Shown here: positions 6,725-23,371 of the stretch, one piece after another
How positions within the stretch are numbered: the stretch's first letter is position 1
How the letters are laid out: each line of letters begins with the position of its first letter
Assembly (NCBI GenBank): GCA_025839675.1
Contig: CP104013.1
Span: 5,310,001-5,342,000, forward strand
Direction: 5' to 3'
Source: Candidatus Lokiarchaeum ossiferum
Lineage (GTDB): Archaea; Asgardarchaeota; Lokiarchaeia; Sigyniarchaeales; Promethearchaeaceae
DNA length: 32,000 bases
Position numbers and translations under genes: made by a program
The notes under the pieces: generated by a model
Database searches by the model: none
What the model saw: only the letters and a program-made list of their open reading frames with translations
What the model was told of the DNA's origin: nothing

Positions 6725-7183
6725 TTGAATTTTTTTGTGTCGTCAAGTGATCCTCAATTTTCGGATTTTACCTTTACTGAATTACTTAATTTTGTTTCCA
6801 CCATTAGCCGCACTAAAAAACAATCTTCCCTCGGGGTGTGGAAGGATGGGCATGGTTTAGAATCAATGGACCATTTGGAAGCTAATGTGGATCAAATTCT
6901 TGAAGAATTGACAACCCGTGTCAAAAAAGTTTGGTCCTTAGAGCGAATTCAATCTAATTTTGCCAGAGCGGGTTTAAATTTACCCAATGAAATTCTTAAC
7001 ATCTTTAATATAACATCTTCTGAGTTGAATCGATTATTATACAAGTTTCCTCCTGCAATTGGGGCTGAGAACGTCAATGGTGTAGATGAAATCTGGCTGG
7101 TTATTAATAACATGAAATATTTGATGAAATCTGATGGTAAAATTTTTGTTTCAGAAATGCCCCGCAAAGAATTTTTTTCATAA
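6725..7183 (+). CDS. hypothetical protein, paralog A of a tandem pair
   Basis: 152 aa with a TTG start in the track. Shares 'ISRTK.QS..GVWKDGHGL.S.DHLEA.VD.IL.EL' and 'RIQ.NF....LNLP.E.LN....T...LN...YK' with ORF 7274..7708. No known family recognised. Confidence 0.6.
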   Translation: MNFFVSSSDPQFSDFTFTELLNFVSTISRTKKQSSLGVWKDGHGLESMDHLEANVDQILEELTTRVKKVWSLERIQSNFARAGLNLPNEILNIFNITSSELNRLLYKFPPAIGAENVNGVDEIWLVINNMKYLMKSDGKIFVSEMPRKEFFS

Positions 7184-7743: not shown

Positions 7744-8544
7744 TTATTGATAAAGTTTAGTAGCGGCTTCAATTATTGGTTTGAATTTAGCTGCTGAAAG
7801 AGACGCCCCTCCAATTAAGCCTCCATCAATGTCATTAATGGAAAGCAATCCTTCACAATTACTATCTTTCATTGATCCCCCATACTGGATGGGAATCGTA
7901 TTTCCGATTTCATTGCCAAATGTATCGATCAGCCATTTTCGGATAAATTTATGGATTGAATCTGCTTCGTCGGGGGTTGCAGTTTTGATTTCTGTGTCCG
8001 GGTTTAAAAATTTATTATTTATTGCCCAAACTGGCTCATAAGCGATAACAATATTCTTCATTTGTTCTGGGGAAACATCAGCTAACGATTCTTCAAGTTG
8101 CTTTTGGTTGACGGCTTCGGTTTGGCCATCTGCTTTTTCCTTAGCTGTTTCTCCAATACATAATACTGGTTTTAATCCTTTTTCTAACGCTTTTTTGACT
8201 TTTTGGTTAATATATGCATTATCTTCTCCAAAAATTCTTCTTCGTTCACTATGTCCTAAAAGAACATACTCGCAGCCACAATCCAAAAGAGAGTCTGCCG
8301 AAATTTCCCCGGTAAAAGCACCTTGATCCCGAAAATACATGTTTTGACCTGCTAATTTTAACTTGGTTCCTTTAATTGCTTGACCCACAGCAAATAATGC
8401 ATGATAGGAAGGAGCCACAAAAACATCCACTCCATTCATGTCAATTTCTTCAAGTGCAGTTGCAATTTCTTTTGCTACGGAAACTGCTTCATCCACTTTC
8501 ACAATCTGCATTTTCCAATTTCCACCGATTACAAATTTTCTCAT
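7744..8544 (-). CDS. tpiA: triose-phosphate isomerase, bacterial/eukaryotic type
   Basis: 266 aa. Motifs 'GGNWKM' (Asn/Lys), 'GHSERR' (His), 'AYEPVWAI' (Glu), 'IQYGGS' and 'DGGLIGGASL'. Differs from the archaeal-type TIM motifs (INFK / NHSE / EPPELIGTG). Confidence 0.9.
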   Translation of the reverse strand: MRKFVIGGNWKMQIVKVDEAVSVAKEIATALEEIDMNGVDVFVAPSYHALFAVGQAIKGTKLKLAGQNMYFRDQGAFTGEISADSLLDCGCEYVLLGHSERRRIFGEDNAYINQKVKKALEKGLKPVLCIGETAKEKADGQTEAVNQKQLEESLADVSPEQMKNIVIAYEPVWAINNKFLNPDTEIKTATPDEADSIHKFIRKWLIDTFGNEIGNTIPIQYGGSMKDSNCEGLLSINDIDGGLIGGASLSAAKFKPIIEAATKLYQ

Positions 8545-8878: not shown

Positions 8879-9625
8879 TCAATTGCCTGGAATAAATGGT
8901 TCAATGAAAGGTGTGAGTGAAATAGCAATAATCATACCTGCAATAACTTGTAAAAAGTTGAATGGTAATTCAAACAACGCACCTGCTATTCCATATGTGA
9001 AATATTGAACTGTAAAATATGTTGCTATCATGACCAATCCCCCTGGAATTATTGCAATTATTTTAGCTCCTATCATTTTATTGAGAAACAAGCTGAGAAC
9101 TATAATTGTTAAGCCAATCCCTGCACCTATAATGTACCAGAAAGTTGTTGATAATAAATGTGAAAATAAACTGGATCCAATATAACCAATTAGAAGACTT
9201 GTTATAATGCTGAAAATTGCAATGATAATTTTTATTAATTTATCAGAAAATTGTTGTTTTTTCAAAAATTGATAAATTAATCCTACTATTAATCCTTCTA
9301 ATCCTTTAGCAATGAATGTATAAGGTGCATAGTATGCATAATTCAAGAAAACATCTGCCATCGCGGACCCGACTCCTCCAGCGAAACCTCCAATAATTGG
9401 TCCAAATAAAATGGCTGAAATAAATACCATCAATTCACCAAAATTGAACATTCCTTCCGTCAAAGGTATTGGAATTGCCAGAATCATTGTAGAAACAGTT
9501 GTTAATGCTGTCATAATACTGCACAAGGCAATCTGAAGAGTAAGGGGCATTTTTTTGCCTGTATTTACTGATCGATTTTGCAAAGCATTTGTATGCTCCA
9601 CATTAGATTGTTGAGAAACTTCCAT
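8879..9625 (-). CDS. ECF-transporter S-component-like integral membrane protein
   Basis: 248 aa with ~6 TM segments. 'FNFGELMVFISAILFGPIIGGFAGGVGSAMADV' and 'FIAKGLEGLIVGLIY' resemble ECF S-component / vitamin-uptake family signatures. No adjacent ECF A/T genes. Confidence 0.5.
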   Translation of the reverse strand: MEVSQQSNVEHTNALQNRSVNTGKKMPLTLQIALCSIMTALTTVSTMILAIPIPLTEGMFNFGELMVFISAILFGPIIGGFAGGVGSAMADVFLNYAYYAPYTFIAKGLEGLIVGLIYQFLKKQQFSDKLIKIIIAIFSIITSLLIGYIGSSLFSHLLSTTFWYIIGAGIGLTIIVLSLFLNKMIGAKIIAIIPGGLVMIATYFTVQYFTYGIAGALFELPFNFLQVIAGMIIAISLTPFIEPFIPGN

Positions 9626-9743
9626 CGTGAAAACCTACTTATATCAAGTTGAGACTTGAATAGTCATATTATTTAAAGAAATTATACTATAAAAAGATAT
9701 CAAGTTGTAACTTTAGTAAAAACAGAGATTTAAAAAAAAATAA

Positions 9744-14380: not shown

Positions 14381-15436
14381 TTGCATAATTTATATACTCT
14401 TAACGTTAAGTCAGATAAAATTCAAAAAGTCCATTATAATGTTGTCTATAAAAAGATCAATATGCTCCATGCCTATTATTCCGATTTGATCCAATCTGTA
14501 ATGATTTACCAAAATTCTCACAATCAGGTATATATCGAAGCTGAAAATGAAAAAGGGGTCACACAATTGACTGGTAAGATGGTCGCTATTGACAATGAGT
14601 CCATTCATAACGAAAACATTGACACAATTATTTCTAAATTTGAAAATTTTTCTATTTATAAGATTTCAACAGGATTTCCTGAAGAAGAAATTAAAATTTA
14701 TGGCAATACTAATTTAAAAACTGAAATATTACACATTTTTGAATCTGATGCAGATGTGGTGACTATTGGGATGGTAGACCCGTCCAATGAGTGTGATTTT
14801 GTGATTATATCCATTTTTTCTACCGATTCTCAAGTTCTATCTATGTTTGATTATAATTTTGAATTTCCAGAATTATTCCAACCCAATAGCAATGTTGATT
14901 TAGGTGAAAAAGAACTAAAACCGGATTTACTCGCTCAAAATGATCAGATTATCCGAACCGAATTAAAGAAGGAGAAAAAAGAAGATTCTAACTCGCGAAA
15001 AACTAAAAAACCAAAAAAATCTACAAAAACCCTTAAACTCCAATCCAATCAAGTGAAAAGCGAATCAAATTTAGATAAAAAGTCGGAAACTAATATTGTC
15101 CAGAAACCTGAGGTAAAATTACTCAATGCTGATACAACACCGCGATCTGTTGTGGAGCAAACAATTCCAATTTCTTCTTCTATGGTAATTTTAAAACAAT
15201 TTTCTTCAAAAATGCAATCTAAGGCTATTGAAATTGAAACATGGAAAGAAAAAGTTCATCATCAAAAATTGAAAAATGAAAAGTTGATAAAAAACCTTCA
15301 ATCTGAAAAATTAAATAATAAAAAACTCAAGCGAACCTTAAACGAAAAAGAGAAAGAATTACTAACTGTTTCAGCACAGTTGAAAGAGCTGCAAGATGAA
15401 ATTCTTCATCTTCATGATCTGATGCAATTGGAATGA
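14381..15436 (+). CDS. hypothetical protein: conserved ~165-aa N-domain, basic linker, C-terminal coiled coil (paralog A)
   Basis: 351 aa. The TTG start aligns exactly with the Met of paralog B ('HNLYTLNVKSD' vs 'SNLFIMDVKSD'), with GAGGT ~9 nt upstream. Shared motifs 'ISTGFPEEE' and 'FDY.FEF'. K-rich linker (res ~193-246). Heptad-rich tail (res ~275-351). Confidence 0.7.
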   Translation: MHNLYTLNVKSDKIQKVHYNVVYKKINMLHAYYSDLIQSVMIYQNSHNQVYIEAENEKGVTQLTGKMVAIDNESIHNENIDTIISKFENFSIYKISTGFPEEEIKIYGNTNLKTEILHIFESDADVVTIGMVDPSNECDFVIISIFSTDSQVLSMFDYNFEFPELFQPNSNVDLGEKELKPDLLAQNDQIIRTELKKEKKEDSNSRKTKKPKKSTKTLKLQSNQVKSESNLDKKSETNIVQKPEVKLLNADTTPRSVVEQTIPISSSMVILKQFSSKMQSKAIEIETWKEKVHHQKLKNEKLIKNLQSEKLNNKKLKRTLNEKEKELLTVSAQLKELQDEILHLHDLMQLE

Positions 15437-15679
15437 TCTATTTTTATCACTTTATTTTCTTTTTTTAAACTTAAAAATCACGTATTTATGGGTAATTGAC
15501 ACCCATTTCCTTGCCAATTTTGTGTAAAGATCCCTATTTTTGCTGGAATCCACGCAAAGTTTAAATAAGGGAAAATTAATTTACAAAAAATCCATGTATT
15601 TAAAATGGAGAAAATCTTTGGAAGATTACTACTAGAAATAACCTAAAAATCATTAGATTTATATTGGATGTATTGTAAG

Positions 15680-16600
15680 ATGTCAAATTTATTCATTATG
15701 GATGTTAAAAGTGATGTTACGAAAGTTTTGAATCATCTAACTTATAACAAATTAAAAATATTAGATCCGTTTTTTACTCAGTCGATTAAAGCTGTTTTTT
15801 CAACAGATATTTCTATGAATTCAATTTTAATTGAAACTCAGAAAAAATCGGAAGCATTAAGGATAACTAAAAAAATTGTCTCAATTGATTCCACATCCAT
15901 CAAGGTTTATGAAAATGAAGGGGGGTTGTCGAACATTGAGAATTATTGTGTATATAATATTTCTACGGGATTTCCGGAAGAAGAGGATTTAAATCTTGTT
16001 GGTTCGATTAATCTGAAAAATTTAATCACACATTTATTTTCAATGGGGCAAGAAGTGGTGAGAATTGGCCTTTGGGATTCGGAAAGTGATGAAGAAAATT
16101 ATGCTTCCTTAGTCATTTTTTCTCCTGAATCAGTTCTTTTAGAAAATTTTGACTACGAATTCGAATTTCAGGATGAAGAAGAACATGAATCTGAAGAAGT
16201 CCTGGAAGTGGATGAAGATCTTGATGTGGAGGATGAAATTGAAATGGATGCCGAAATTGAAGCAGATGACGAACCGCTAAAAGATGATAATTCTGTAGAT
16301 GAAGTCCAATCCTTAATAAAAGATGTCAATATTCGGGAAAAAAAAAAAAATGAGCCCCAGGAAATATCTTCATTAGCGCATGCCCAATCATTACTCGCTT
16401 CTTTGGAAAATCGCTATGAAAATTTACAGTTAGATTATGAATCAAACAATCGCGAAAATGCTCGATTAACTCAAAAATGTAAAGATTATGAACAAGAAAT
16501 AATTAAAATTACTGATGAGTTAAAAATTTCTCAAGATCAATTGCAGAAGTTGCAAAATGCAATAAATACTCTCATAAATCTCTCACAAATTGAAAAATAA
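15680..16600 (+). CDS. hypothetical protein: conserved ~165-aa N-domain, acidic linker, C-terminal coiled coil (paralog B)
   Basis: The track ORF starts at 15668 (MYCKM...). Met at 15680 (MSNLFIMDVKSD) aligns with the paralog A start. D/E-rich linker 'QDEEEHESEEVLEVDEDLDVEDEIEMDAEIEADDE'. C-terminal coiled coil. Confidence 0.7.
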   Translation: MSNLFIMDVKSDVTKVLNHLTYNKLKILDPFFTQSIKAVFSTDISMNSILIETQKKSEALRITKKIVSIDSTSIKVYENEGGLSNIENYCVYNISTGFPEEEDLNLVGSINLKNLITHLFSMGQEVVRIGLWDSESDEENYASLVIFSPESVLLENFDYEFEFQDEEEHESEEVLEVDEDLDVEDEIEMDAEIEADDEPLKDDNSVDEVQSLIKDVNIREKKKNEPQEISSLAHAQSLLASLENRYENLQLDYESNNRENARLTQKCKDYEQEIIKITDELKISQDQLQKLQNAINTLINLSQIEK

Positions 16601-16606
16601 TTTTAA

Positions 16607-17956
16607 TTATTTACCTAAATCTATCAAATCCCTCATTTTTTCTAACATTTCTTGCCCTTTGTTTGTTAATATATATAATGCTTTTTTTTGGTCTGGAATG
16701 GTATCAATAATCAATCCATCCTCAACAAGATTGTTGATATGTTGGTAAATTGACTGTAATGATTTCTTTTTACCCAAAGCTCCCCAAATTGCATAACCAT
16801 GATTTGCTTTTTTTTCTGCTACTAAATTTAGAATTTCAAATCTTTGGGTTGAGAACTCAGAAATACCCCACACTACCTTTTTTATATCCCTCATTTGTGA
16901 TGCAAAAACATTTAGAGCATTTAATCCAGAACCGGTTAAAATTGCCACAGAAGTCTTTGGATCAATTTGTTCTTTCTGTATAAGAGATTTTGCTGCCGAA
17001 ATTACTGATGCGGAAGCTGGTTCAATAAACAATCCTTCATATTTGGCAAGATCTAAGGCATCCTTTGTCATTTCGGAAGCGTCTATTTGTAATTCTTCTC
17101 CTTCTGTAAGTTTTAAAATAGAATTGACTTCATTAATCAAGAATGGATTTTCCAATTTAAGCGATTCCGCTAAAAATGCTCCATCGCTTTTTTTGAGAGA
17201 GACTGCAAATATTTTTGGAATTTTACTTATCCATTTTGAAGCCAGGGCATCTTGAAATCCTCTGTAAATTGACAATATCAAGGTTCCCGAACCTCGAGGT
17301 ACAATAATACTCTCGATATTTTTCATTTGGAGAATTAATTCTAAAGCGATTGTCTTTTGTCCCTCGATTGTGAGTAAATTATTATTTGGGGTGGGGAAGT
17401 AACTCTTTTTTGATAAAGTTAATTCATTGGCCAAAGAAATGGCTTCATCGAGATTTTTCCCTGCTTGAATCACTTCAGATCCATAAACTTTGATTTGTTC
17501 AATTTTGGCTAAATCCATCTGTTTGGGTAAAATGTTAGTGGAAGAAATCTGTCCTTTTGCACTATATGCCGCTAGGCTTATACCAAATGATCCTGTGCTT
17601 GCAGAAATGATTTTTGAAAAATTTTTTGATAGAATATCTGAAGTGATTAGGGCACTCGCACGATCACGAAATGAACCCGTTGGATTCCTAAATTCAAGTT
17701 TTAGATTTAAGTTTTTTAAATTTTCCATATTCTGAATTGGGATAACTGGAGTATTTCCCTCAAAAAGGGTGATTTGCTGTTCATATTTGGGTAAAAAAGG
17801 GATCAAAGACCACATTGATTTTAGTTCAATTTTTTCAATAGGAGGGCCGGTAATCGGATGAATAAAGATCAAATTATTGCAATTCGGACACCAAAGGTAT
17901 GGCACCTCAAATTCTTGGTTGCATTTATTACAAAAAGGTTTATTCTTCCATTTCAT
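16607..17956 (-). CDS. threonine-synthase-like (PLP fold type II) domain lacking the Schiff-base lysine, with N-terminal Zn ribbon and C-terminal PadR-type wHTH
   Basis: 449 aa. Zn ribbon 'CNKCN...CPNCN'. ThrC-family blocks 'NPTGSFRDRAS' (canonical NPTGSFKDR), 'SASTGSFGISLAAYSAKG', 'EGQKTIALEL', 'PRGSGT'. C-terminus 'ILNLVAEKKANHGYAIWGAL...SIYQHINNLVEDGLI...LYILTNKGQEML' matches the PadR pattern. Confidence 0.75.
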   Translation of the reverse strand: MKWKNKPFCNKCNQEFEVPYLWCPNCNNLIFIHPITGPPIEKIELKSMWSLIPFLPKYEQQITLFEGNTPVIPIQNMENLKNLNLKLEFRNPTGSFRDRASALITSDILSKNFSKIISASTGSFGISLAAYSAKGQISSTNILPKQMDLAKIEQIKVYGSEVIQAGKNLDEAISLANELTLSKKSYFPTPNNNLLTIEGQKTIALELILQMKNIESIIVPRGSGTLILSIYRGFQDALASKWISKIPKIFAVSLKKSDGAFLAESLKLENPFLINEVNSILKLTEGEELQIDASEMTKDALDLAKYEGLFIEPASASVISAAKSLIQKEQIDPKTSVAILTGSGLNALNVFASQMRDIKKVVWGISEFSTQRFEILNLVAEKKANHGYAIWGALGKKKSLQSIYQHINNLVEDGLIIDTIPDQKKALYILTNKGQEMLEKMRDLIDLGK

Positions 17957-18091
17957 CTTTAATTCCCTTATCTATTTCTATTTTGTTTTAAATCATATTT
18001 TACTTTTCCCACTTTTTCATTGTAATTATTATGAAATCAATTAAATTTTATTAAAGCTTAATCCATACCACATATAGAGAGCCTAAGAAGA

Positions 18092-18586
18092 ATGACAGAA
18101 AACAAAGAAAATACTCGCTATTCCCTTCTATCTCAGAAAATGGGGTTTAATCAAATGAGAAATTCCCTTTATTGGCTTCAAAGATATATGAAGCGTTTCA
18201 ATGTTTCTCAAGATGAGTTGGAACGGCGATACTTAGAGATGGGCAAAAATATTGGTGCAAGCTTTATAAAAGAGATTGCTCCGCAATCTAAAGAATTAAA
18301 AAATTTATTCCGAGAACTTTACAATTTGACTTTAAGTAGTAAAGTTAAAGTTTTACAAGAAGGAAATGTCTACACTATTCAAGATACTAAATGTGCTTTA
18401 TGTAAGTATCAATATGATGATATTGATTTAGCAGGATGTACGATAGAGATTGGGATGATTTCTGAAATGTTGGAAAGATTAGGTTATAATGTTATTGATA
18501 GTGCTGTCATTGAAAGTAAAACTTATGGGCATAAATCTTGTATCCATCAGTATACTGCCAACAAAGTGGGGTTTTTACATGAGTAG
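18092..18586 (+). CDS. V4R-domain protein (COG1719-like; Bet3/TRAPP-fold relative)
   Basis: 164 aa. The C-terminal 'CALCK...AGCTIEIGMISEMLERLGYNVIDSAVIESKTYGHKSCIHQY' fits the V4R pattern C..aG.l.G.....lG..v...E......G...C.f. Confidence 0.6.
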   Translation: MTENKENTRYSLLSQKMGFNQMRNSLYWLQRYMKRFNVSQDELERRYLEMGKNIGASFIKEIAPQSKELKNLFRELYNLTLSSKVKVLQEGNVYTIQDTKCALCKYQYDDIDLAGCTIEIGMISEMLERLGYNVIDSAVIESKTYGHKSCIHQYTANKVGFLHE

Positions 18587-20027
18587 TACTTTTAAGTGGA
18601 TTGCCATCAAAGCTGGAACATTATTGGGTCGAAATGTACCCTCCTTATTCTATCAGTTAATTTATCGAGAAATCTATCGGGAAATATTCGATTTGACTAA
18701 AAATGGGAAACAAACAATTGAGGATTCATATAAATTAGGATACGTATCCGCTCAAGAAAGTGCAGAACGCCAATTGGCCGTTTTCCGTATGTTTCCTTCT
18801 GATCCTATCAAAGTTTTGGAATATGTTCCATTAATGTGGCAAATTTATTTTGGTCAGCCTATGGGTGATTATACCACTGAATGGGATCACTCAGATCCAA
18901 TTCGCCCCATATTAACCTATAAAATAAAAAATGATCCCATGACTTTTGATATGGGAAAAGACCCATTGCGGGATAATCTTCCATGGGATAAATTATGGTA
19001 TGGAGAAAATGGCTATGGTGCATTAATGTCGGGATTACTTACTCAAGTAAGTAGTTTTGTTTTAAAAGTTAAAGGTAGGGATGAACGGATTACTTTAATT
19101 AACAGTAGTAATGCTCTCCATGGTGATACCCATTTTGAATTTCGTTGTCAAGTATTACCAACTGAAGATGAACTCCCTGATTTTACTTTTAACCATATTT
19201 CTGCTTCCAACTCACGTTCAAATGCTTCAGATTCTGCAGAAATAAAGAAAAATAATGAAATATGGGCAAAAATTACCGAAAATATTGATCTTGATAAATT
19301 GGATAATATGATGGAATCTCCAGAAGGATTGCTCCGTGTTCCGTTATCCAATGCCATAGAAAAAATATCTAAGATGCCTTCGGTAGAATTTTTGGATCAT
19401 TTCACGAATGATGAAGAAAAAATAATTCAAATACTTGGGTTTATCGGAATTCATTTATCAAATGAATGGGGACAATTACCAGAGACATTCTTTAAAAATA
19501 AGAGTTTTGCGAAAGTTTATGCTCATATTTTTCTATTCATGAAAAATAATGCCGAAAAATTTATTCCCGTTAATATTATTGGTGAATTTAAAGGATATTT
19601 GAGTGCCGTATTTGAAGGAATGGCACCAGAAACCTTTGTTACTAATTTACAGAATATTCCAGAGAAAAAAGTGCTCGATCTTTTCTTCTTAGGTGTAGAG
19701 AAAGCATTGAAGGATTTAGGAATTGATTTTTCAACTTTGAAACCTTCTCTTTATGAAGAGTTCAAGACGCATAATGTAAAAGAATCTGAGAAAAGTGCTT
19801 ATGACCAGGGACAGCAAGAAAAAAAGGATCTTCTTATAGCTCAATTAGTTGATCAGATGATGATTATTTCTACTGCAATCCTAAGCATTCCTTCACAAAT
19901 GGCTATGGTGCTTATTTATAAAGTTATTTCAAGTTCTGGTAGTCTTTTCAGTTCTTTATTCAAAACGATCCGAGATAGTGGGCAACAGATAATTGAACTA
20001 TCGGATAAATTGAAAGAATTCAATTAA
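18579..20027 (+). CDS. divergent V4R/Bet3-like domain protein with ~250-aa helical C-terminal extension and hydrophobic tail
   Basis: ATG 18579 overlaps the upstream stop (ATGAGTAG), implying coupling. The track start at 18489 lies inside the upstream gene. N-terminal ~225 aa end in 'GYGALMSGLLTQVSSFVLKVKGRDERITLINSSNALHGDTHFEFRCQV', V4R-like with the Cys ligands mostly lost. The C-terminal region includes 'MMIISTAILSIPSQMAMVLIYKVI'. Confidence 0.5.
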   Translation: MSSTFKWIAIKAGTLLGRNVPSLFYQLIYREIYREIFDLTKNGKQTIEDSYKLGYVSAQESAERQLAVFRMFPSDPIKVLEYVPLMWQIYFGQPMGDYTTEWDHSDPIRPILTYKIKNDPMTFDMGKDPLRDNLPWDKLWYGENGYGALMSGLLTQVSSFVLKVKGRDERITLINSSNALHGDTHFEFRCQVLPTEDELPDFTFNHISASNSRSNASDSAEIKKNNEIWAKITENIDLDKLDNMMESPEGLLRVPLSNAIEKISKMPSVEFLDHFTNDEEKIIQILGFIGIHLSNEWGQLPETFFKNKSFAKVYAHIFLFMKNNAEKFIPVNIIGEFKGYLSAVFEGMAPETFVTNLQNIPEKKVLDLFFLGVEKALKDLGIDFSTLKPSLYEEFKTHNVKESEKSAYDQGQQEKKDLLIAQLVDQMMIISTAILSIPSQMAMVLIYKVISSSGSLFSSLFKTIRDSGQQIIELSDKLKEFN

Positions 20028-20294: not shown

Positions 20295-21245
20295 TTAAAT
20301 TTTAAAACTTTTCAATCCATGTATAATTGTGGCTTTTTCCGATGAATTTAGCATTGTTTGATTGCGTTCTAATTGTTTTACAATATTTTTATAATAAGTT
20401 TTGAATTTTTTAATGATCAACCACTCTATAGTGCCTGCGAGGAATGGAAATAAACCCATCACAATGTAGATAAGGCCTGAAAAATAAACTTGCAATACTT
20501 CTGCATCATTATCGATAGGAAAGCTTATATTTACTCTCCATAATCCCCGTAAACCTGCAGTTAAGAATATGAACAGGCTGTCAATCACAGTTATTGCCAA
20601 TATTATGAACCACCCAATAATTAGAATCATCTCATACCGTTTTCTGTTTTTTGTACTAAAGGTTGCAATAATAATATCCGGGGCTTTCGATTGGGCATGG
20701 TCGGAATTATCTAACATTATTTGATGCTGAATTTTAGTGCTAGAACCACTAATTGAAAACCATATTACCCAAAACCATGTCAAGCAATATATTAAAATCA
20801 CAGGCAAAATGAAAAAATGCGCATAATTATCCATCAATTGGGGGTGAATCTTTGCATCCAATCCTAAAATTAAGAGGATTATTATTTGTGAAAGGGAAGA
20901 TACCAAGAAAATATACCACAATAACTTTTCAGAACTTAACGGATTGATGGAAACGCAATCAGTTCTTGGTTGAGTTGATACCTTAAAAATCCAAAGTATA
21001 CAGAAAAAAATGGTGCCAAACCAAGTAATTATTGGAAACAAAAACAATTGGGGAGAAGTCCAACCTTCAATATAGATTAAAACAAGTCCAATTAAATATG
21101 GAATTATAGATAAAAGAAATTCCGGTGTATGCCAAAAATTGCTTATTTTGAGTTCTTCATCCCTTAATATTCCATGATCTGGCATCTTTACCTTCTTTGT
21201 AGTATCTTTTAATTTTAAAGGTTTGGAAATTACATTTATAAGCAT
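20295..21245 (-). CDS. hypothetical multi-pass membrane protein
   Basis: 316 aa with ~8 hydrophobic segments. No recognisable family. Confidence 0.5.
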   Translation of the reverse strand: MLINVISKPLKLKDTTKKVKMPDHGILRDEELKISNFWHTPEFLLSIIPYLIGLVLIYIEGWTSPQLFLFPIITWFGTIFFCILWIFKVSTQPRTDCVSINPLSSEKLLWYIFLVSSLSQIIILLILGLDAKIHPQLMDNYAHFFILPVILIYCLTWFWVIWFSISGSSTKIQHQIMLDNSDHAQSKAPDIIIATFSTKNRKRYEMILIIGWFIILAITVIDSLFIFLTAGLRGLWRVNISFPIDNDAEVLQVYFSGLIYIVMGLFPFLAGTIEWLIIKKFKTYYKNIVKQLERNQTMLNSSEKATIIHGLKSFKI

Positions 21246-21343: not shown

Positions 21344-23371
21344 ATGCCCGAAACCGATCCCGACAAAATAGATTCCTTTCTTAAAACTACATCAAAAATC
21401 TTAGGTTATCATGATTTTTTTCCCTATGATTCTTATCGTCCAGAACAAGAGCGTGTTATTCAAAATATTTCTGAAGCAATTGCATTGGGAAAAAATGCCA
21501 TCTTAATCGCATCTAACGGGACTGGGAAAACAATAATGGCTCTTTCTGCTGCTTTACCAATCGCTTTGAATGATAAGAAACGAAAAATTTTATTTTGCTC
21601 AAGAACATACACTCAAAATGCCCGAGTTATTCAAGAAACTAAGGAAATAACTCAAAAATTTGCAAAACTGCAAATTCAAGAAACTATTGGGGCTGTAAGT
21701 CTGCGGGGTCGAAATGAAATGTGCCCCCATAAAACTCTTCAACGATTACAATTACCTCCTCAAGAATCAATGAGTTTGTGTTCTACTTTACGAAAGAATA
21801 AAAAATGTCGTTATTTTAATCAACTATTCAAAAGGAAAAAAACCAAAGGTTTTCAAGATGAAATTGATGCATTGGCAAATATGCCTTTAGATGCTCAAGA
21901 TTTGATGGATTTTTCTGAGCAAGATGATGTATGTCCTTATTTCCTAAGTAAGATATTATTAGAACATGAGGATATCATTGTGTGTAATTATCAATGGATT
22001 TTTGATCCAAATATTCGAGAAAACTTTTTAGAATCGTTGGGTGTGGGATTATCTGATTGTATTATCATTATGGATGAATGTCATAATCTTCCTGAAATGG
22101 CCAATGGGATCAATTCTTTCCGCTTAACTCCCTTTGGTTTGCGACAAGCTCTCAAAGATCTTGAAGTTACTCGTGCTAAATTTAAGTTGGTCAACTTTGT
22201 TAAAAATTTGCGAAAAATGCTCGAGGTTGTAAAAGATCGTATAACTGATGAGATGGAACTAGATCCCTCTAAATTTATCCAAACAATTTTAAACAAAAAC
22301 AAATTGGGGTCAGTCCGAGATATTAAAGACATTCTTCTTGATTTGAAAGATTATGGTGACGCTATCGAACAAGAAAAAATTGATCAAGGCCAAGTTCCCC
22401 GTAATTTTATTGCTCCAATATGCGAATTTTTTGAAAATTTTCTGGAACGTATTGATGATCCAGCATATTTTGCCTGTATTACTTTAAAAAATACCAGTAA
22501 GGGCAAAAGCGTTGCATTAGAATTGAAATGCTTATCTCCACGGTCCATCACAGATGCGATTTTCAAAGAGAGTTTTGCGACTCTATCGCTCTCCGGGACA
22601 TTACATCCCTTTACCTACACTCATTTATTGGGTTTAAATCATTCTGGGAAAATGCTCAAAATTATTAAAATGAAACCTCCGTTTCCAGAAGAAAATGTAA
22701 AGGTTCTTCTCACCGCAGAATTAAATACAAAAGGGGATCAGCGCACAATATCCATGTATCGGGAGATGTTAATTGCTATCAAACCCATATTATTGAATAC
22801 CCCAAAAAATGTTGGGATATTTTGTGCTTCATATGAAGTAGTCAATGGATTATGGGATAATGGTTTAGAAAGATTAGCTAAAATGTGTAATAAAAAAGCC
22901 TTTCGAGAAAAAAATGGGCTAACTGCGAGTGATAATGATATAATCGTGGAACAATTCCGTTCCTATGCAAGTCGCTCTGATTTCAATGGTGCAGTTCTAT
23001 TAGGGGTAAGTGGGGGACGAAATAGTGAAGGGGAAGATTTTCCAGGAGATCAAATGAATGCTGTGATTATATGTGGGGTTCCCTTTCAACGTCCCACACC
23101 TAGTGGAAATGCAAAGATTGCTTATTATGAGAAACTTTTTCCCCGTAAGGGGCGAGTTTTTGGCTATATTGCTCCTGCAATGCAGAGATCTAATCAAGGA
23201 TGTGGAAGGCCAATCCGTCGAATGACGGATAAAGGGTTGATTGTTTTAATGGATTATCGATTTGGGACTTATTCTCCCTATTTGTCTGATTGGGTCCGTC
23301 GTGCCATGGTTAAGGTGCCAAAACACACGGGAATCATTGAACAAGAAGTACAAAAATTTTTTGGCAAATAA
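21344..23371 (+). CDS. xpd: XPD/Rad3-family (DinG-like) 5'-3' DNA helicase with FeS-cluster domain
   Basis: 675 aa. Walker A 'ASNGTGKT', motif II 'MDECHNL', FeS Cys set ('EMCPHK', 'SLCS...KKCRYF', 'DVCPYF'), and C-terminal helicase motifs 'GVSGGRNSEGEDF' and 'QGCGRPIRR'. Confidence 0.9.
   Translation: MPETDPDKIDSFLKTTSKILGYHDFFPYDSYRPEQERVIQNISEAIALGKNAILIASNGTGKTIMALSAALPIALNDKKRKILFCSRTYTQNARVIQETKEITQKFAKLQIQETIGAVSLRGRNEMCPHKTLQRLQLPPQESMSLCSTLRKNKKCRYFNQLFKRKKTKGFQDEIDALANMPLDAQDLMDFSEQDDVCPYFLSKILLEHEDIIVCNYQWIFDPNIRENFLESLGVGLSDCIIIMDECHNLPEMANGINSFRLTPFGLRQALKDLEVTRAKFKLVNFVKNLRKMLEVVKDRITDEMELDPSKFIQTILNKNKLGSVRDIKDILLDLKDYGDAIEQEKIDQGQVPRNFIAPICEFFENFLERIDDPAYFACITLKNTSKGKSVALELKCLSPRSITDAIFKESFATLSLSGTLHPFTYTHLLGLNHSGKMLKIIKMKPPFPEENVKVLLTAELNTKGDQRTISMYREMLIAIKPILLNTPKNVGIFCASYEVVNGLWDNGLERLAKMCNKKAFREKNGLTASDNDIIVEQFRSYASRSDFNGAVLLGVSGGRNSEGEDFPGDQMNAVIICGVPFQRPTPSGNAKIAYYEKLFPRKGRVFGYIAPAMQRSNQGCGRPIRRMTDKGLIVLMDYRFGTYSPYLSDWVRRAMVKVPKHTGIIEQEVQKFFGK

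Follow-up and report, generated by a model that had tools for sequence, protein, structure and literature searches.

A threonine synthase-like protein with a C-terminal winged helix as a probable vitamin B6-sensing repressor in Asgard archaea

What might a protein built like a threonine synthase (ThrC), carrying an arginine where the catalytic lysine belongs and ending in a DNA-binding fold, do in an archaeal cell? The question is raised by a gene, here called ThrCL (for ThrC-like), in a 32,000-nucleotide stretch of Candidatus Lokiarchaeum ossiferum DNA (assembly GCA_025839675.1, contig CP104013.1, forward-strand positions 5,310,001 to 5,342,000). This stretch is termed the window, its numbering is used throughout, and its features are collected in Table 1. 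An earlier note, made from the letters alone, had proposed that a fold-type-II pyridoxal phosphate (PLP) scaffold is reused here as a ligand sensor driving a DNA-binding domain, in the manner of MocR and GabR. Support for that proposal now comes from (i) linkage to vitamin B6 genes, (ii) a candidate operator, and (iii) covariation between that operator and the DNA-binding domain. The best explanation of these data is that ThrCL encodes a transcription factor and not an enzyme. It is probably a repressor of B6 uptake and synthesis genes that senses PLP or another form of the vitamin, convergent with the bacterial MocR/PdxR proteins; its DNA binding, the identity of its ligand and the sign of regulation we infer from comparisons of sequences.

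Loss of the Schiff-base lysine and presence of a winged helix

The ThrCL protein is 100% identical to WP_371803793.1 / XEO79787.1 of Ca. Lokiarchaeum ossiferum, and the copy in a second strain, UYP48233.1 (NEF87_004518), falls in the same 90%-identity cluster. Public names for the protein and its relatives are 'pyridoxal-phosphate dependent enzyme', 'hypothetical protein' and 'Threonine synthase' (UniRef, JGI). Aligned by phmmer with three threonine synthases of solved structure (6cgq, 2d1f and 1uim), ThrCL has Arg97 exactly under the lysine of NPTGSFKDR and Ser123 under the asparagine of ASTGN, which bears out both of the replacements that had been read from the sequence. The asparagine of S-T-G-N contacts O3' of PLP. 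Position 97 is arginine in each of the 89 full-length orthologues from Asgard archaea (Loki, Heimdall, Thor and MK-D1; 46-89% identity), and because arginine is fixed in all of them a base-calling error, earlier judged unlikely, is excluded, as is a pseudogene. Serine occupies position 123 in 99% of the Asgard clade; asparagine does so in 95% of canonical relatives.

We compared alignment columns among (i) Asgard proteins bearing the winged helix-turn-helix (wHTH), (ii) other wHTH-bearing proteins, and (iii) 59 relatives that have the lysine and lack the extension. Of the canonical positions, only the lysine is lost almost everywhere across the wHTH-bearing family, where R, I, L, F, V, T, Y, M, H, S, A or N takes its place. 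The cofactor pocket is kept (F96, G122, P220-x-G222-x-G224 and T/S341-G342-x-G344), including the phenylalanine that stacks on the PLP ring, the glycine-rich phosphate loop and the T/S-G-x-G motif. This pattern fits a PLP-like ligand that would still be bound by a protein in which catalysis is gone. Among 50%-identity cluster representatives, 76 of the 81 whose C-terminal extension measures at least 60 amino acids are without the lysine, and it is kept in 59 of 59 proteins that have no extension (Fisher p = 4.6e-34). The co-occurrence of lysine loss and winged helix raised by the earlier note therefore holds across most of the family, but it fails in a sister clade, described below, that keeps the lysine in 109 of 109 members with a readable motif. 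The arginine-bearing proteins L030, P0125, P0135 and P0098 (the last from Bathyarchaeia) are 41-45% identical to the lysine clade and 33-35% identical to the window clade; being closer to the former, they indicate that the change from lysine to arginine happened at least twice.

Structure prediction supported the same division of the protein. An AlphaFold model with 148 homologues as input had a predicted local distance difference test score (pLDDT) of 92.7 and a predicted template modelling (TM) score of 0.87, and the nearest solved folds found by Foldseek were the threonine synthases 6nmx, 3aey and 1uin (target-normalised TM score, 0.80). The C-terminal region had been described as a PadR-type wHTH with an HGY signature, and profile and model show a PadR-like winged helix. 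In Pfam the domain scored above the cut-off for HTH_45 (28.2 bits against 25.5) and under that for PadR (PF03551; 21.7 bits against 27), and its profile matched archaeal RosR (E 3e-7) as well as many PadR structures (E 1e-6 to 1e-3). Modelled alone (pLDDT 87.8), it showed the topology H-H-H-beta-beta-H and resembled MarR, RosR and PadR regulators, with a best TM score of 0.81 to PadR 6abt. The conserved wHTH has an invariant glutamine and an invariant tyrosine in its recognition helix.

Two further parts of the protein were observed. An N-terminal zinc ribbon, absent from the earlier account of the protein, has cysteines (C9, C12, C23 and C26) that are invariant across 70 Asgard orthologues; a ribbon of this kind is also frequent in lysine-bearing relatives that lack the wHTH. 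The segment that joins the PLP domain to the wHTH (amino acids 356-376, window ~16829-16891, R-x-x-KKVVWGLSESSTTKFEIL) ranks with the best-conserved stretches of the Asgard clade, has an invariant Trp363, and holds the sole low-confidence segment of the model (amino acids 358-364). It is a candidate hinge for relaying the signal.

Against curated models, ThrCL scored under every ThrC cut-off (NF004170, 270.9 bits against 421; TIGR00260, 98.2 against 167.1). NCBIfam NF004170/PRK05638, named 'threonine synthase', nevertheless aligns with it from end to end, through zinc ribbon, PLP domain and wHTH. None of the 10 family members scored against NF004170 (ThrCL and nine relatives) reached 421 bits, the best scoring 375, and the enzyme name given to proteins of this type is probably a systematic mis-annotation. 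The architecture, which the earlier note had not recognised as described, is thus already catalogued under an enzyme name and widespread in Archaea; the literature searched, mostly outside subscription journals, gave no description of the family as a regulator. Hundreds of archaeal 'threonine synthases' and 'PLP-dependent enzymes' are likely to be affected; reconstructions of Asgard and TACK metabolism should then leave them out of threonine biosynthesis.

Linked vitamin B6 genes and a candidate operator

Orthologue loci (L numbers) were fetched from genomes and metagenomes. In 14 of the 19 Asgard ThrCL loci for which 1.4 kb or more of downstream sequence was available, a gene for the S component of an energy-coupling factor (ECF) transporter (PF07155) lies downstream on the same strand, often directly adjacent to ThrCL, and in Heimdall-type loci the ATPase and T components accompany it. 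The window has such an ECF-S gene on the strand of ThrCL, 7 kb downstream. Its best match in the PDB was HmpT (4hzu_S, E 2e-9), followed by FolT (7e-4), and no other transporter structure in that search reached E<=1. No ECF transporters of B6 vitamers other than PdxU and PdxU2/HmpT, both of the PF07155/COG4720 family, have yet been characterised (PMC9997740). We predict that the window gene encodes a B6-vitamer importer of the PdxU/HmpT type. The linkage extends to family members only 31-36% identical that carry arginine, tyrosine, leucine or lysine at the Schiff-base position (L030, L032-L034 and L074-L076). In the Heimdall-type loci L010 and L072, the PLP synthase genes pdxS-pdxT fill the slot downstream of ThrCL (SOR_SNZ, 321 bits; SNO, 181 bits). 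In L034 the start of pdxS lies next to an ECF-S gene and is divergent from it, the two standing beside the regulator gene.

The distribution of these genes hints at which lineages import vitamin B6 and which make it, as the importer is found in most Loki- and Heimdall-type loci and pdxST in few. A search for PdxS homologues gave no Lokiarchaeum or Promethearchaeum name among the 120 matches listed; about nine of those listed were close relatives of the ThrCL-linked PdxS, and the other named ones came from TACK archaea or Thermoplasmatota. This is suggestive, not conclusive, of B6 auxotrophy and of dependence on uptake in transporter-carrying lineages.

Every linked ECF-S gene is preceded by a 22-bp dyad with an 8-N6-8 layout and the core (C/A)AAG-N6-CTT(G/T). 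The Heimdall-type version of the dyad, TATACAAG-N6-CTTGTATA, is complementary at 8 of 8 arm positions; the version in L005 and L021 is ATCTCTAG-N6-CTAGAGAT, and that in L015 is TACTCAAG-N6-CTTGAGTA. One copy is present in Heimdall-type ECF-S promoters, and two copies, 16-56 bp apart, in Loki-type and pdxS promoters. We scanned for further sites with a weight matrix built from ECF-S sites only, leaving the window's own sites out for the scan of the window. The two candidate operators of Table 1 ranked at the top of ~64,000 positions, with the next best at 12.6 bits, and 200 dinucleotide shuffles gave a mean maximum of 12.6 bits and an overall maximum of 18.2. That third-best match (7038-7059, minus strand, TATACAAGTTTCCTCCTGCAAT) lies within an open reading frame (ORF) at 6725-7183 and is probably due to chance, its score being equal to the shuffle mean maximum.

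The ECF-S matrix also found sites at the synthesis genes. In L010, L072 and L073 its top matches lie 12-46 nt upstream of pdxS (24.8 and 20.9 bits in L010, 22.2 and 21.6 in L072, 22.8 and 12.9 in L073); no ThrCL was present within the 5 kb fetched upstream of pdxS in L073, suggesting regulation in trans. Across loci outside the matrix, the top match fell no more than 200 nt upstream of the target gene in seven of nine, against a chance of 0.015-0.06 per locus. In Heimdall-type and pdxS promoters the dyad begins 6-8 nt after a conserved AAAAG(A/G)TTTTAT(A/T), which resembles a B recognition element and TATA box. An operator over the transcription start is the usual position for an archaeal repressor, and we infer repression because a protein on the dyad would cover that start. 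An RNA hairpin or an inherited promoter is a less likely origin of the dyad. Because the dyad comes just behind the TATA-like box, a transcript would contain no more than a portion of it; the distance between copies also varies, and the dyad precedes two unrelated types of gene.

Two observations connect the dyad with ThrCL itself. Of the genes common to the linked loci, ThrCL alone has a DNA-binding fold, and changes in its wHTH accompany changes in the dyad. In L005 and L021 the half-site is CTAG in place of CAAG, and the wHTH has YAPAI for HGYAIW and SLQA for SLQS in the recognition helix; in the sister clade the half-site is TAAG, with A, E or P for the otherwise invariant glutamine that opens the recognition helix and G-I-Y-G-K-K-I for HGYAIW. 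This covariation, which comprises two evolutionary events only, would tie the dyad to ThrCL as supporting evidence, not as proof.

Table 1. Features of the ThrCL gene, its predicted target and its surroundings in the window
Feature	Positions	Strand	Details
ThrCL (ThrC-like pseudoenzyme/wHTH gene)	16607..17956	-	449-aa ORF
Zinc ribbon, N-terminal, four Cys (C9, C12, C23, C26)	17879..17932	-	aa 9-26
Fold-type-II PLP-enzyme domain	16931..17773	-	aa 62-342; Pfam PALP 177.9 bits, E 3.8e-52
Codon CGT = Arg97, Schiff-base lysine position	17666..17668	-	alignment to solved ThrCs
Codon TCA = Ser123, S-T-G-N Asn position	17588..17590	-	alignment to solved ThrCs
wHTH, PadR-like, C-terminal	16613..16858	-	aa 367-448; recognition helix SLQSIYQHI after HGYAIW motif
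Predicted target: ECF-transporter S component, PF07155 (PdxU/HmpT family)	8879..9625	-	104.2 bits, cut-off 26.7
Promoter-proximal candidate operator, TATTCAAG-TCTCAA-CTTGATAT	9641..9662	-	20.2 bits; ends 15 nt before ECF-S ATG
Distal candidate operator, TACTAAAG-TTACAA-CTTGATAT	9697..9718	-	19.6 bits
Intergenic region between ThrCL and divergent pair	17957..18091		no copy of operator motif
Loki-type gene cluster	18092-18586, 18579-20027, 20295-21245, 21344-23371		

Proposed function and competing explanations

In the mechanism that we propose, the ThrC-derived fold-type-II domain, with its Schiff-base lysine lost and its cofactor pocket kept, would act as the sensor, and the PadR-like wHTH would bind DNA. 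A ThrCL dimer would occupy the 22-bp dyad just downstream of the TATA-like box of B6 supply genes, the regulon comprising the PdxU/HmpT-type ECF-S gene in the window and pdxS-pdxT in other lineages. Most likely, PLP or another B6 vitamer would fill the pocket non-covalently, the operator would then be occupied, and both uptake and synthesis of the vitamin would be repressed. The logic of PdxR would thus have been reached independently from unrelated domains. The candidate factor, its operator and the core regulon are present in both cultured Asgard archaea, L. ossiferum and MK-D1, the MK-D1 protein being QEE16251.1, and this makes the proposal directly testable.

Several points weigh against this proposal. 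Seven ORFs of at least 150 amino acids separate ThrCL from the ECF-S gene in the window, where most other loci have the two adjacent, and PF07155 bears the name of a riboflavin transporter, the sequence itself not revealing the substrate. No ECF-S gene was seen in the available sequence of five Asgard loci (L002, L010, L017, L026 and L038), of which L010 has pdxST and the other four have neither within reach; the Bathyarchaeia locus L006 likewise shows neither ECF-S nor pdxST within reach. Several loci are close relatives (L013 equals L014, L032 and L076 match exactly in their upstream DNA, and L001, L027 and L036 are related), so the independent lineages are fewer than the loci. The first operator sites were chosen by eye, a circularity limited by the leave-one-out scans and by the independent pdxS loci. 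Autoregulation is usual for such factors and was not seen here, as no site of at least 11 bits lies within 200 nt upstream of ThrCL genes, save a 14.3-bit match in L015.

A second large Asgard clade also bears on the proposal. Its proteins (relatives of P0114; P0388-P0506) share the architecture at ~34% identity to ThrCL and occur in metagenome-assembled genomes (MAGs) named Loki, Thor, Odin, Heimdall, Hod and Hermod, a few of whose annotations already label such proteins 'Transcriptional regulator'. With the motifs NPTNSFKDR and ASNGN, they keep lysine and asparagine in every one of the 109 members whose motif is readable. Their loci L032, L033, L034 and L076 adjoin PF07155 ECF-S genes, L034 also adjoining the start of pdxS, and their dyad has the geometry of that of ThrCL, with half-sites TAAG-N6-CTTA as against CAAG-N6-CTTG. 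Because this clade keeps the lysine together with the same architecture and linkage, loss of the lysine is not required for function. Its members may be PLP-loaded sensors or bifunctional enzymes, in which PLP is held covalently or even used in catalysis. A path from enzyme to regulator could have been preserved within one phylum, and we offer this only tentatively: the lysine-keepers would be 'trigger enzymes', active or loaded with PLP, whose occupancy reports B6 status to the wHTH, and the window clade and several other archaeal lineages would have dropped the lysine independently to become pseudoenzyme sensors. If so, lysine-keeping and lysine-less proteins together form an unrecognised pan-archaeal family of vitamin B6 regulators hidden under the name 'threonine synthase'.

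Other explanations were weighed against a B6-sensing repressor. It is rather unlikely that ThrCL is a transcription factor for the same genes with a ligand other than free PLP. The pocket might then take a PLP-amino-acid aldimine, a vitamer without the phosphate, O-phosphohomoserine or threonine, or some other micronutrient that the ECF transporter carries. Such a ligand would suit a pocket in which PLP, lacking the lysine, cannot form an internal aldimine and in which Arg97 could pair with a carboxylate or phosphate, and the family of the transporter bears a riboflavin name. However, the operator is also found at pdxS-pdxT (L010, L072, L073 and L034), whose only product is PLP, and the window ECF-S protein matches HmpT above FolT. 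O-phosphohomoserine is further disfavoured by the alignment to 1uim, where ThrCL has a threonine at the position that we take, from published structures of ThrC, to be the arginine binding the substrate phosphate. Of the three ligands suggested earlier (PLP, O-phosphohomoserine and threonine), the predicted regulon points to PLP, or B6 vitamers more generally, and not to the other two. A role in B6 homeostasis without operator binding, as a PLP carrier, buffer, chaperone or transporter partner with some other protein on the dyad, we regard as improbable. Gene linkage alone cannot separate a regulator from another B6 function, and the promoter of ThrCL itself is without an operator, but this explanation leaves unaccounted for the sole DNA-binding fold common to the linked loci, the conserved wHTH with its invariant glutamine and tyrosine, and the two occasions on which wHTH and operator changed together.

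The remaining explanations concern the neighbouring genes and the enzyme name. A divergent pair (18092-20027), across 135 bp from ThrCL, had been put forward as a plausible target; the arrangement exists, and the pair also stands beside ThrCL in L004 and L005. The matrix scan found no operator-like site in the spacer, the conserved targets being ECF-S and pdxS-pdxT; moreover, the pair is absent from Heimdall-type loci, two inserted genes part it from ThrCL in MK-D1, and its linkage looks like synteny at the level of the lineage, an XPD helicase included. Regulation of this pair is thus very improbable. That ThrCL catalyses threonine synthesis and carries its C-terminal domain as an accessory, as its UniRef/JGI names and the end-to-end NF004170 alignment would have it, is scarcely credible for a protein with arginine in place of the Schiff-base lysine and scores under the cut-off of every ThrC model. 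To our knowledge, that lysine is essential in every fold-type-II PLP enzyme.

Known systems and neighbouring genes

The closest parallel to the proposed B6-sensing repressor is bacterial. PdxR and the other MocR proteins, like ThrCL, combine an enzyme-derived PLP-fold domain with a winged helix, and PdxR, like the predicted ThrCL regulon, involves pdxST and a PdxU-type transporter, with repeated promoter boxes in both. For ThrCL, control of these genes through repeated boxes is a prediction of comparative genomics only. MocR proteins, however, have a fold-type-I domain behind an N-terminal GntR wHTH and keep the PLP lysine, whereas ThrCL has a fold-type-II domain before a C-terminal PadR-like wHTH, shows no GntR match and has lost the lysine. 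ThrCL also differs from PdxR in being archaeal and, judging by the position of its operator, probably a repressor; it would act in the manner of PdxR from outside the MocR family. We know of no regulator of vitamin B6 supply in Archaea. The bacterial PdxR regulon comprises pdxST, pdxK and pdxU, and MocR regulators are absent from Archaea (PMC5320631), an absence that leaves the niche of a B6 regulator open there. A 2025 preprint on Asgard pdxST describes the regulation of the PdxS/PdxT route as poorly characterised. If our proposal is true, the convergence is a clean one, bacteria and archaea having each fused a different PLP-enzyme fold to a different winged helix as a B6 sensor.

With class II ThrC (1uim, 6cgq and 2d1f), ThrCL shares the fold and the blocks NPTGSF-x-DR, S-T-G-x, the glycine loop and T-G-x-G, from which its arginine for the catalytic lysine and its serine for asparagine set it apart. 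With PadR and RosR it shares the topology of the wHTH, the trailing helix and the HGY motif, and those regulators recognise dyads of short half-sites about one helical turn apart, as in the candidate operator. In PadR, by contrast, the wHTH is N-terminal and precedes the dimerisation/effector region; in ThrCL it follows a sensor of 360 amino acids.

Around the divergent pair, the Loki-type loci L001, L004 and L005 share a cluster of a ~165-amino-acid protein, an overlapping ~485-amino-acid protein, a membrane protein and an XPD-like helicase. Neither the ~165- nor the ~485-amino-acid protein gave a Pfam match, and the identity of the window pair (18092-18586 and 18579-20027) as V4R/Bet3-like could not be confirmed, a Pfam search with the limit relaxed to E<=10 having brought up neither V4R nor Bet3. 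On the other side of ThrCL, 14381-15436 and 15668-16600 encode tandem paralogues that share an N-terminal domain of ~165 amino acids (38% identity, E 1e-30; motif ISTGFPEEE), beyond which each has a low-complexity stretch, acidic or basic, and then a coiled coil at the C-terminus; the domain matches obtained, to Spt5-NGN and EAD9, were no more than weak.

A gene for triosephosphate isomerase (7744-8544) directly follows ECF-S in the window, and likewise in the Loki-type loci L004 and L005, where ECF-S itself adjoins ThrCL. The products of this enzyme are substrates of PdxS; the arrangement may be coincidental synteny. Heimdall-type loci carry a small ORF of 115-186 amino acids on the opposite strand between ThrCL and ECF-S or pdxS (L010 2229-2603 and L013 8742-9089; by gene calls only, similarly placed ORFs at L003 8680-9030, L007 7387-7740 and L072 4310-4870). 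In L010 and L013 its product has no match in Pfam and shows a hydrophobic N-terminus and Cys-Asp or Asp-Arg dipeptide repeats (CDPDCDPDC, DRDRDR). The one scanned example of another small ORF (L003, 5751-5951) likewise had no Pfam match; this ORF, of 65-66 amino acids, precedes ThrCL by ~50 bp and runs in the same direction in L002, L003, L007 and L072, and may be co-transcribed with it.

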